NCBI RefSeq assembly: GCF_046105845.1
Contig: NZ_CP151004.1
DNA from: Escherichia coli
GTDB taxonomy: Bacteria; Pseudomonadota; Gammaproteobacteria; Enterobacterales; Enterobacteriaceae
Direction: 5' to 3' (one strand)
Length of the DNA stretch: 64,000 nucleotides
Made by a program: the position numbers. This document shows, piece after piece, positions 6,001 through 9,000 of the stretch (position 1 is its first letter; each line of letters starts with the position of its first letter).

Positions 6001-9000
6001 ATTTGCACTCTGACCGGTTAAATCAGAATGTCCGGTAATATCTACATCCGGATCAATATAAACCGCACCCGCAGAAAATGTCGGGCGGTCAAACATGGTA
6101 ATCAATGCGGGGTTACGGCTAACGTTACCTGCATCATCGGCAATTGCGCCTTCCCCTGAATAAGCCCGGCCCAGGCCAGAGGAAGAAAATTCGTTTAACT
6201 GAAAGCCTGCCGACCAGACCTGGGTGGAGATAAGTGCCACTGCGACTGCGAGAGCAGACTTTGTAAACAGGGTTTTCTGGCTCATGACCATAACCTCAAT
6301 GATTTATTTTTATACAAACTATGTTACGTGCTGTAACAGGAGCGCGAAGTGTAGGGTCTGAGGTACATCTTAGAAATCAGACCAGTGGCGAGAGTATAGG
6401 TCGGACCAGCTGGAATGTTGCAAGTATGTTTCTATCTTTTTTCAAATATGATCTAAGAAACGCGATCCAGCTGGCAAAATTTGGAGGTGGCGCACTCATG
6501 GATTCGGGTGAATTTTGTCTTAGATCATTTTTAAGTGTGATTTCGGTCACTTATCCGATTTTGCAGAATTAACAACTGGAGCAGCACTTTCCGGAAGCGT
6601 AAAATATCCACAACGTTTATCTGGCACCTTGGGTGCACATACAGAGGAAATCAACGATGAGTAAATGTAGTGCTGATGAAACCCCGGTTTGCTGCTGTAT
6701 GGATGTTGGCACCATTATGGACAACTCCGACTGCACCGCGTCTTACAGCCGCGTGTTTGCAAACCGCGCAGAAGCAGAACAAACGCTGGCGGCGCTGACT
6801 GAAAAAGCCCGTAGCGTGGAATCCGAACCGTGCAAAATCACCCCGACTTTCACTGAAGAGTCTGACGGTGTGCGCCTGGATATCGATTTCACTTTTGCCT
6901 GCGAAGCTGAAATGCTGATCTTCCAGCTGGGTCTGCGTTAATTCCTCTCGGGTACGTATGCCCCTGTCAGTTGTTGGCAGGGGCGTTTTATTTTCTTTCT
7001 CCTGTCTTCACTGTGTCATAGCTCCCACTTTCCTTTTTCTCCGCTTGGCTAAATGTAAAAAAATGGTTAAGAATATGATCAGGTCAGACCACTTTATATC
7101 TTTTTTTACAGGGGAGTGTTATGGGTCAGGTTTTACCGCTGGTTACCCGCCAGGGCGATCGTATCGCCATTGTTAGCGGTTTACGTACGCCTTTTGCCCG
7201 CCAGGCGACGGCTTTTCATGGCATTCCCGCGGTTGATTTAGGGAAGATGGTGGTAGGCGAACTACTGGCACGCAGCGAAATTCCCGCCGAAGTGATTGAA
7301 CAACTGGTCTTTGGTCAGGTCGTACAAATGCCGGAAGCCCCCAACATTGCGCGTGAAATTGTTCTCGGTACTGGAATGAATGTGCATACCGATGCTTACA
7401 GCGTCAGCCGCGCTTGCGCTACCAGTTTCCAGGCGGTTGCAAACGTCGCAGAAAGCCTGATGGCGGGAACTATTCGCGCGGGGATTGCCGGTGGGGCCGA
7501 TTCCTCTTCCGTATTGCCAATTGGCGTCAGTAAAAAACTGGCGCGCGTGCTGGTTGATGTCAACAAAGCTCGAACCATGAGCCAGCGCCTGAAACTCTTC
7601 TCTCGCCTGCGTTTGCGCGACTTAATGCCGGTGCCTCCGGCAGTGGCGGAATACTCTACTGGCTTGCGGATGGGCGACACCGCTGAACAAATGGCGAAAA
7701 CCTACGGTATTACTCGCGAACAGCAAGATGCATTAGCGCACCGTTCGCATCAGCGAGCCGCTCAGGCGTGGTCAGACGGTAAACTCAAAGAAGAGGTGAT
7801 GACTGCCTTTATCCCTCCTTATAAACAACCGCTTGCCGAAGACAACAATATTCGCGGTAATTCCTCGCTTGCTGATTACGCAAAGTTGCGTCCGGCGTTT
7901 GATCGTAAACACGGGACGGTAACGGCAGCAAACAGTACGCCGCTGACCGATGGCGCAGCGGCGGTGATCCTGATGACCGAATCGCGGGCGAAAGAATTAG
8001 GGCTGGTACCGCTGGGGTATCTGCGCAGTTACGCATTTACTGCGATAGATGTCTGGCAGGACATGTTGCTCGGTCCGGCCTGGTCAACGCCGCTGGCGCT
8101 GGAACGTGCCGGTTTGACAATGAGCGATCTGACATTGCTCGATATGCACGAAGCCTTTGCAGCTCAGACACTGGCGAATATTCAGTTGCTGGGTAGTGAA
8201 CGTTTTGCTCGTGATGTACTGGGGCGTGCACATGCCACTGGCGAAGTGGACGATAGCAAATTTAACGTGCTTGGCGGTTCGATTGCTTACGGGCATCCCT
8301 TCGCGGCGACCGGCGCACGGATGATTACCCAGACATTGCATGAACTTCGCCGTCGCGGCGGTGGATTTGGTTTAGTTACCGCCTGTGCTGCCGGTGGGCT
8401 TGGCGCGGCAATGGTTGTGGAGGCGGAATAATGGAAATGGCATCAGCGTTTACCCTTAATGTCCGTCTGGACAACATTGCTGTTATCACCATCGACGTAC
8501 CGGGTGAGAAAATGAATACCCTGAAGGCGGAGTTTGCCTCGCAGGTGCGCGCCATTATTAAGCAACTCCGTGAAAACAAAGAGTTACGTGGCGTGGTGTT
8601 TATCTCCGCGAAACCAGACAACTTCATTGCTGGCGCAGACATCAACATGATCGCCAACTGCAAAACGGCGCAAGAAGCGGAAGCACTGGCGCGGCAGGGT
8701 CAACAGTTAATGGCGGAGATTCATGCTTTGCCCGTTCCGGTTATCGCGGCTATTCATGGCGCTTGCCTGGGCGGTGGGCTGGAGTTGGCGCTGGCGTGCC
8801 ACGGTCGCATGTGTACTGACGATCCTAAAACGGTGCTCGGTTTGCCTGAAGTACAACTTGGATTATTACCCGGTTCAGGCGGCACCCAGCGTTTACCGCG
8901 TCTGATAGGCGTCAGCACAGCATTAGAGATGATCCTCACCGGAAAACAACTTCGGGCGAAACAGGCATTAAAGCTGGGGCTGGTGGATGACGTTGTTCCG

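Follow-up and report, generated by a model that had tools for sequence, protein, structure and literature searches.

A predicted FadR operator in the fadIJ promoter of an Escherichia coli chromosome segment

The spacer in front of fadI in Escherichia coli contains a 17-bp palindrome, and the question raised by this locus is whether the palindrome is the site through which FadR represses the fadIJ operon, or whether it serves other regulators, an activating role of FadR, or no regulatory role at all. FadR is a winged-helix, acyl-CoA-sensing regulator of the GntR family, and in K-12 the fadR gene lies at a distance from the fadIJ locus. The question was addressed in a stretch of 64,000 nucleotides (hereafter the window) of contig NZ_CP151004.1 (assembly GCF_046105845.1), for which an earlier note, made from the sequence alone, had proposed a FadR operator in the fadIJ promoter.

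In a 2022 review (PMC9329746), both the repression of fadIJ by FadR and its operator site are credited to Campbell et al. 2003. According to the same review, long-chain fatty acids induce fadIJ in a FadR-dependent manner, fadIJ is negatively regulated by FadR, its FadR site overlaps the transcription start site predicted from dRNA-seq, and the FadR sites of the fad genes in general overlap the -10/+1 region. The fadIJ FadR operator is thus already known and ordinary textbook biology, to which the present analysis adds no new biology. Its outcome confirms the textbook link, by which FadR keeps FadIJ, the second beta-oxidation complex, switched off as long as long-chain acyl-CoA is lacking, and its practical value is one of annotation: in this strain, the operator and the CRP, -35, ArcA-like and -10 blocks described below can be confidently marked.

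The fadIJ locus and its palindrome

The window is a segment of the E. coli chromosome that carries fadL (on the reverse strand), yfcZ, fadI and fadJ in the gene order of K-12, and a 2.3-kb piece around the palindrome has matches of 90-99% identity in 5,425 of the 5,426 complete E. coli genomes, the identity at this locus being 95-99% in essentially all of these chromosomes. The features needed here are the following.

4945-6291, reverse strand: fadL open reading frame, identified as FadL
6958-6986, forward strand: intrinsic terminator of yfcZ, a 13-bp stem followed by a T-run
7078-7094: predicted FadR operator, a 17-bp imperfect palindrome, ATCAGGTCAGACCACTT (reverse strand AAGTGGTCTGACCTGAT), with a single occurrence in the 64-kb window
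7082-7090: operator core GGTCAGACC, two inverted GGTC half-sites flanking one central base
7121-8431, forward strand: fadI, 3-ketoacyl-CoA thiolase (TIGR02446 equivalog, 902.7 bits against a cut-off of 711.55)
8431-10575, forward strand: fadJ (TIGR02440 equivalog, 1346 bits against a cut-off of 968.45)

The name fadI also agrees with the RefSeq annotation of E. coli genomes with 99.1% identity. Since the start of fadJ overlaps the stop of fadI, the two genes belong to the same operon, and fadI is the first gene controlled. The palindrome is located in the 179-bp yfcZ-fadI spacer, 3' of the yfcZ terminator, by which the fadIJ promoter is shielded from transcription coming from upstream.

The coordinates first proposed for the operator, 7077-7093, were one base too low: the stretch at those positions reads GATCAGGTCAGACCACT, and the 17-mer occupies 7078-7094. 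The GGTC-N-GACC core on which the proposal was based is present at 7082-7090, and the site indeed lies shortly upstream of fadI (identified by TIGR02446), since it ends 26 nt before the ATG at 7121. The description of fadIJ as the anaerobic beta-oxidation operon needs a small correction: the word "anaerobic" is now disputed, because fadIJ is repressed by ArcA under anaerobic conditions and regulated like fadBA (PMC9329746; PMC3798270).

On the reverse strand, the palindrome agrees with the consensus given in the review, aaCTGGTCnGACC(T/A)Gtt, at 14 of the 16 specified positions. In its left half-site an A replaces the T of the consensus (CAGGTC versus CTGGTC), and this AGGTC form is typical of the fadI sites of Vibrionales and Enterobacterales among the matches listed. 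The 17-mer is identical to that of the fadIJ (yfcYX) site of K-12 MG1655, where the gene order (fadL / yfcZ-fadI-fadJ) and the distance to the ATG are also the same; in the strain of the window, a small number of flanking bases are not those of K-12, among them a rare A in place of C at position 7073. The operators of fadE, fadBA and fadL, which are of the repressor class, are likewise 17-bp palindromes with a TGGTC-N-GACC(A/T) core; they overlap the -10/+1 region, as the fadI operator would with its putative -10 and +1, and the fadE site, AAGTGGTCAGACCTCCT, has the whole half-site AAGTGGTC in common with the fadI operator. Whereas fadL and fadD have two FadR sites each, fadIJ has a single one, and a weight-matrix scan of the yfcZ-fadI spacer found no second FadR site. 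Neither the exact 17-mer nor its reverse complement was found in the text of the papers searched, in which the published alignments are presumably contained in the figures. A role of GGTCAGACC as an RNA hairpin was discarded, since its 4-bp stem would have a loop of only 1 nt and cannot form.

Our reading is that the 17-mer at 7078-7094 is the predicted single operator by which a FadR dimer represses the fadIJ operon, and we assign to it a probability of about 0.93. The reading is based on how well and how significantly the sequence matches, on where the site lies in the promoter region and on a conservation that tracks the orders bearing FadR, whereas FadR-dependent induction of fadIJ, control by CRP and ArcA, and release by acyl-CoA are taken from the literature. 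The membership of fadIJ in the FadR regulon, as proposed in the earlier note, is borne out by the concurrence of the consensus and weight-matrix match, the promoter position, the conservation and the literature.

Resemblance to the boxes of PdhR and LldR

PdhR and LldR, two other regulators of the FadR subfamily, recognise boxes of the TGGT-N3-ACCA type. Their inverted TGGT/ACCA half-sites resemble those of the fadI operator, whereas their effectors are pyruvate and lactate, respectively, and their regulons differ from that of FadR. The palindrome could serve primarily or additionally as a docking site for PdhR, LldR or a similar protein, with FadR as one of several occupants. The operator agrees with the LldR box AAnTGGTCnGACCAnTT at 12 of 14 positions and with the PdhR box AATTGGTnnnACCAATT at 10 of 14, so that its sequence alone does not make the site exclusive to FadR. 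Moreover, LldR SELEX recovered the FadR sites of fadE and fadL, and a peak of PdhR genomic SELEX has been assigned to the fadI-yfcZ region, its position being resolved to about 100-300 bp. However, the main text of the paper on LldR SELEX, with the part of its target table that was covered, makes no mention of fadI, and the gel shift of PdhR on fadI was a smear, which its authors read as dissociation of the complex. In addition, the conservation of the box upstream of fadI matches the range and the regulon core of FadR (see the last section), and the induction of fadIJ is reported to be FadR-dependent. We therefore regard this explanation as unlikely, although it is the only rival to the FadR reading that carries some weight; any cross-recognition by PdhR or LldR would add to the control by FadR and not replace it.

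A narrower proposal is that the FadR operator is the true contact of PdhR, and that PdhR (responding to pyruvate) and FadR (responding to acyl-CoA) compete there. The PdhR box published for this region, cAgcGGTaaaACCtgac, is located at 7125-7141, in the first codons of fadI, and matches the PdhR consensus at only 7 of 14 positions, which is worse than the 10 of 14 found in the operator 44 bp upstream; the SELEX peak might therefore reflect binding to the operator. If this were true, a site shared by PdhR and FadR would explain the peak better than the 7/14 box within fadI does, and the reported "activation" of fadIJ by PdhR would be the displacement of a stronger repressor, FadR. We consider such competition quite unlikely.

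The fadIJ promoter and the probable mode of FadR action

The place of the predicted FadR operator within the promoter was analyzed by means of an alignment of 33 distinct Enterobacteriaceae promoter sequences, which revealed five conserved blocks besides the operator. The promoter features are listed below; the -35 and -10 elements and the transcription start are putative.

7009-7030: CRP box, core TGTGT-N6-TCCCA at 7012-7027, mean column identity 0.826
7045-7050, forward strand: -35 candidate TTGGCT, 18 bp upstream of the -10 candidate, mean column identity 0.985
7054-7070, forward strand: ArcA-box-like direct repeats TGTAAA and GGTTAA, 11 bp apart, in the promoter spacer
7069-7074, forward strand: -10 candidate AAGAAT, in the conserved block GTTAAGACT, mean column identity 0.955
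7081, forward strand: putative transcription start (A), placed from the -10 candidate and the CRP box at -61.5
7110-7116, forward strand: Shine-Dalgarno sequence AGGGGAG of fadI, in the conserved block ACAGGGGAG 4 nt before the ATG

Most E. coli have AAGACT at the -10 candidate, Pectobacterium and Brenneria have AACAAT, and the second base (A) and sixth base (T) of the hexamer are retained across the Enterobacterales. A generic sigma-70 scan yielded no forward-strand promoter at the 9/12 threshold; the fadIJ candidate matches at 7-8 of 12 positions and is thus weak, which fits a dependence on CRP. For fadI, the supplementary table of Li et al. 2019 gives a CRP site at -112 to -91 from the ATG, AAGTGGGAGCTATGACACAGAG. 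This 22-mer is the reverse complement of the K-12 sequence, from which the copy in the window differs only in the flank. The centre of the CRP box (7019.5) falls at -61.5 from the putative start, a classical class I position.

The hexamer TATGAT (7074-7079) was also considered as the -10 element and judged less likely, owing to the G found at the second position in most Enterobacteriaceae, the lack of a -35 partner at 16-18 bp and the non-canonical position (-66.5) at which the CRP box would fall. With this alternative, +1 would be at about 7086, and even so the operator would overlap the core promoter.

The block TGTAAAaaaaaTGGTTAA (7054-7070; mean column identity 0.889) consists of two TGTTA-like repeats 11 bp apart. 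An ArcA box is made of two direct repeats, 11 bp from centre to centre, and fadIJ is directly repressed by ArcA (PMC3798270). On the basis of its repeat architecture, the block, which overlaps the putative core promoter, is probably an ArcA box.

With the start at 7081, the predicted operator would cover about -3 to +14. It would thus lie directly 3' of the -35 and -10 candidates and over the putative start, a geometry that is typical of a repressor. Because of this position, a bound FadR dimer would be expected to block RNA polymerase, at the level of either its binding or open-complex formation, a detail that depends on the putative -10 and +1, and steric repression is most likely the mechanism, layered on activation by CRP and repression by ArcA. 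In this scheme, the dimer would sit directly 3' of a weak, CRP-dependent -10 element. Once long-chain fatty acids have been imported and activated, long-chain acyl-CoA would bind FadR, FadR would leave the DNA, and fadIJ would be transcribed, as long as there is cAMP-CRP and no ArcA-P.

FadR is a dual regulator that activates fabA and fabB, and the window itself contains the fabB activator site (25845-25861), so that an activating role at fadIJ must also be weighed. The fabA and fabB sites are bound by the same protein and belong to the same motif family as the fadI operator. However, they have a TGATC-N-GACTT core, and activator sites are located upstream of the -35 element (PMC9329746), whereas the fadI operator has the full GGTC/GACC core, lies over the putative start, 3' of the conserved -35 and -10 candidates, and is only 26 nt away from the ATG. 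The literature, in turn, describes negative regulation of fadIJ by FadR and its induction by fatty acids, and reports that the expression of fadI rises in a fadR deletion. Activation by FadR at this site is consequently very improbable, and repression remains the preferred reading.

It is worth mentioning that the rare C-to-A allele at 7073 changes AAGACT to AAGAAT, which is nearer to TATAAT, and could be a mild promoter-up variant, as judged from the hexamer. The 41-mer at 7053-7093 has an exact match in only 2 of the 5,426 complete E. coli genomes, and the 86-mer at 7040-7125 in none of them.

Matrix score and conservation of the predicted operator

The earlier note had suggested a scan with a FadR weight matrix. 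The matrix was built from eight published FadR sites (gel-shift probes or tabulated sites), with fadI purposely omitted: the two sites of fadL, the two of fadD and those of fadBA, fabA and fabB (PMC4259882), and that of fadE (PMC10272880). On this matrix the fadI operator scores 17.45 bits (reverse strand), and the scan thus favours the proposed site. It ranks fourth among 128,000 positions, and the three positions above it are training sites that also occur in the window, where they have the sequences of published K-12 probes:

6395-6411, reverse strand: fadL FadR site OL1
6371-6387, reverse strand: fadL FadR site OL2
25845-25861, forward strand: fabB activator FadR site

The fadI operator is therefore the best site outside the training set, and the next position scores 11.5 bits, which is 6 bits lower. 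From the exact score distribution, P is 5e-7 per position and strand, and the number of matches expected at 17.45 bits is 0.065 in the whole window and 1.6e-4 in the 179-bp spacer. As a side observation, a FabR-type palindrome, CGTACAAGTGTACG, comes after the fabB FadR site and ahead of fabB (25928-27148).

The short core is less informative. GGTCNGACC occurs four times in the 64 kb, against 0.78 expected, twice in promoter sites (fadL and fadI) and twice inside the coding regions of pta and ackA; because of these coding copies, the 9-mer core by itself is weak and non-diagnostic evidence. The GGTCAGACC cores within pta and ackA are at 52746-52754 and 53234-53242. Both are outside the top 20 matrix scores (i.e., below 7.8 bits) and were rejected as FadR sites owing to their low full-length score; they are most likely due to chance.

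For the analysis of conservation, fadI orthologues were sampled independently of the operator, one genome per species, using a degenerate pattern that encodes GLRTPFARQ and anchors about 57 nt inside fadI. The best matrix match in the 300 bp upstream of each anchor was recorded for at least 120 anchored loci. Among the matches listed, the best match contains GGTCNGACC as follows.

Enterobacteriaceae: 34 of 34 loci
Other Enterobacterales: 11 of 13 loci, both exceptions being Dickeya
Vibrionales: 36 of 37 loci
Alteromonadales/Aeromonadales: 7 of 8 loci
Remaining loci: 1 of 24

The remaining 24 loci belong to Myxococcota, Competibacteraceae, Kangiellaceae, Ectothiorhodospira and similar taxa, together with a few chance matches. 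Among the matches listed, the GGTCAGACC core is thus found upstream of fadI in 88 of the 92 loci of Enterobacterales, Vibrionales and Alteromonadales/Aeromonadales, and the start of the box is mostly located 83-130 nt upstream of the anchor. According to comparative genomics, fadIJ and fadL form the core of the FadR regulon that is common to Enterobacteriales, Vibrionales and Shewanellaceae (PMC5343134). As far as can be judged from these upstream regions, the predicted FadR box in front of fadI follows the taxonomic range and the regulon core of FadR, and this footprint across orders independently backs the claim that fadIJ is part of an ancient core of the regulon.

Within the 33 aligned Enterobacteriaceae promoters, the operator has a mean column identity of 0.993, with 14 of its 17 columns invariant, whereas the rest of the promoter spacer has a mean identity to the window of 0.68, and the 14 nt directly 3' of the operator vary in both sequence and length. 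The operator is also unchanged in eight E. coli genomes drawn from the whole ranking of 5,424 matches, from best to weakest. That the palindrome arose by chance and has no regulatory role, as the additional copies of GGTCNGACC in pta and ackA might suggest, is hardly credible, since it is excluded by the score statistics of the full 17-mer and by the conservation footprint, i.e., 99% identity in the operator against 68% in its flanks and a box in 88 of 92 fadI upstream regions among the matches listed, from three or more orders.

Several individual loci deserve mention. One of the sampled E. coli strains carries an 8-bp deletion immediately after an intact operator. No FadR-like box was found within 300 bp upstream of the anchor in Vibrio albus and in a Shewanellaceae metagenome-assembled genome (locus L038), the sole boxless Vibrionales and Shewanellaceae loci among the matches listed; they may reflect a true loss, an extended leader or the use of another start codon. 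In Dickeya oryzae and Dickeya undicola, the promoter block GGTTAACAAT is kept about 105 nt upstream of the anchor and the operators are decayed, with GAGTTCAAACC and GAGTTCAGACC in place of CAGGTCTGACC, which suggests that the control of fadIJ by FadR may have been weakened or lost in this genus. The operator core is still perfect in Pectobacterium and Brenneria.
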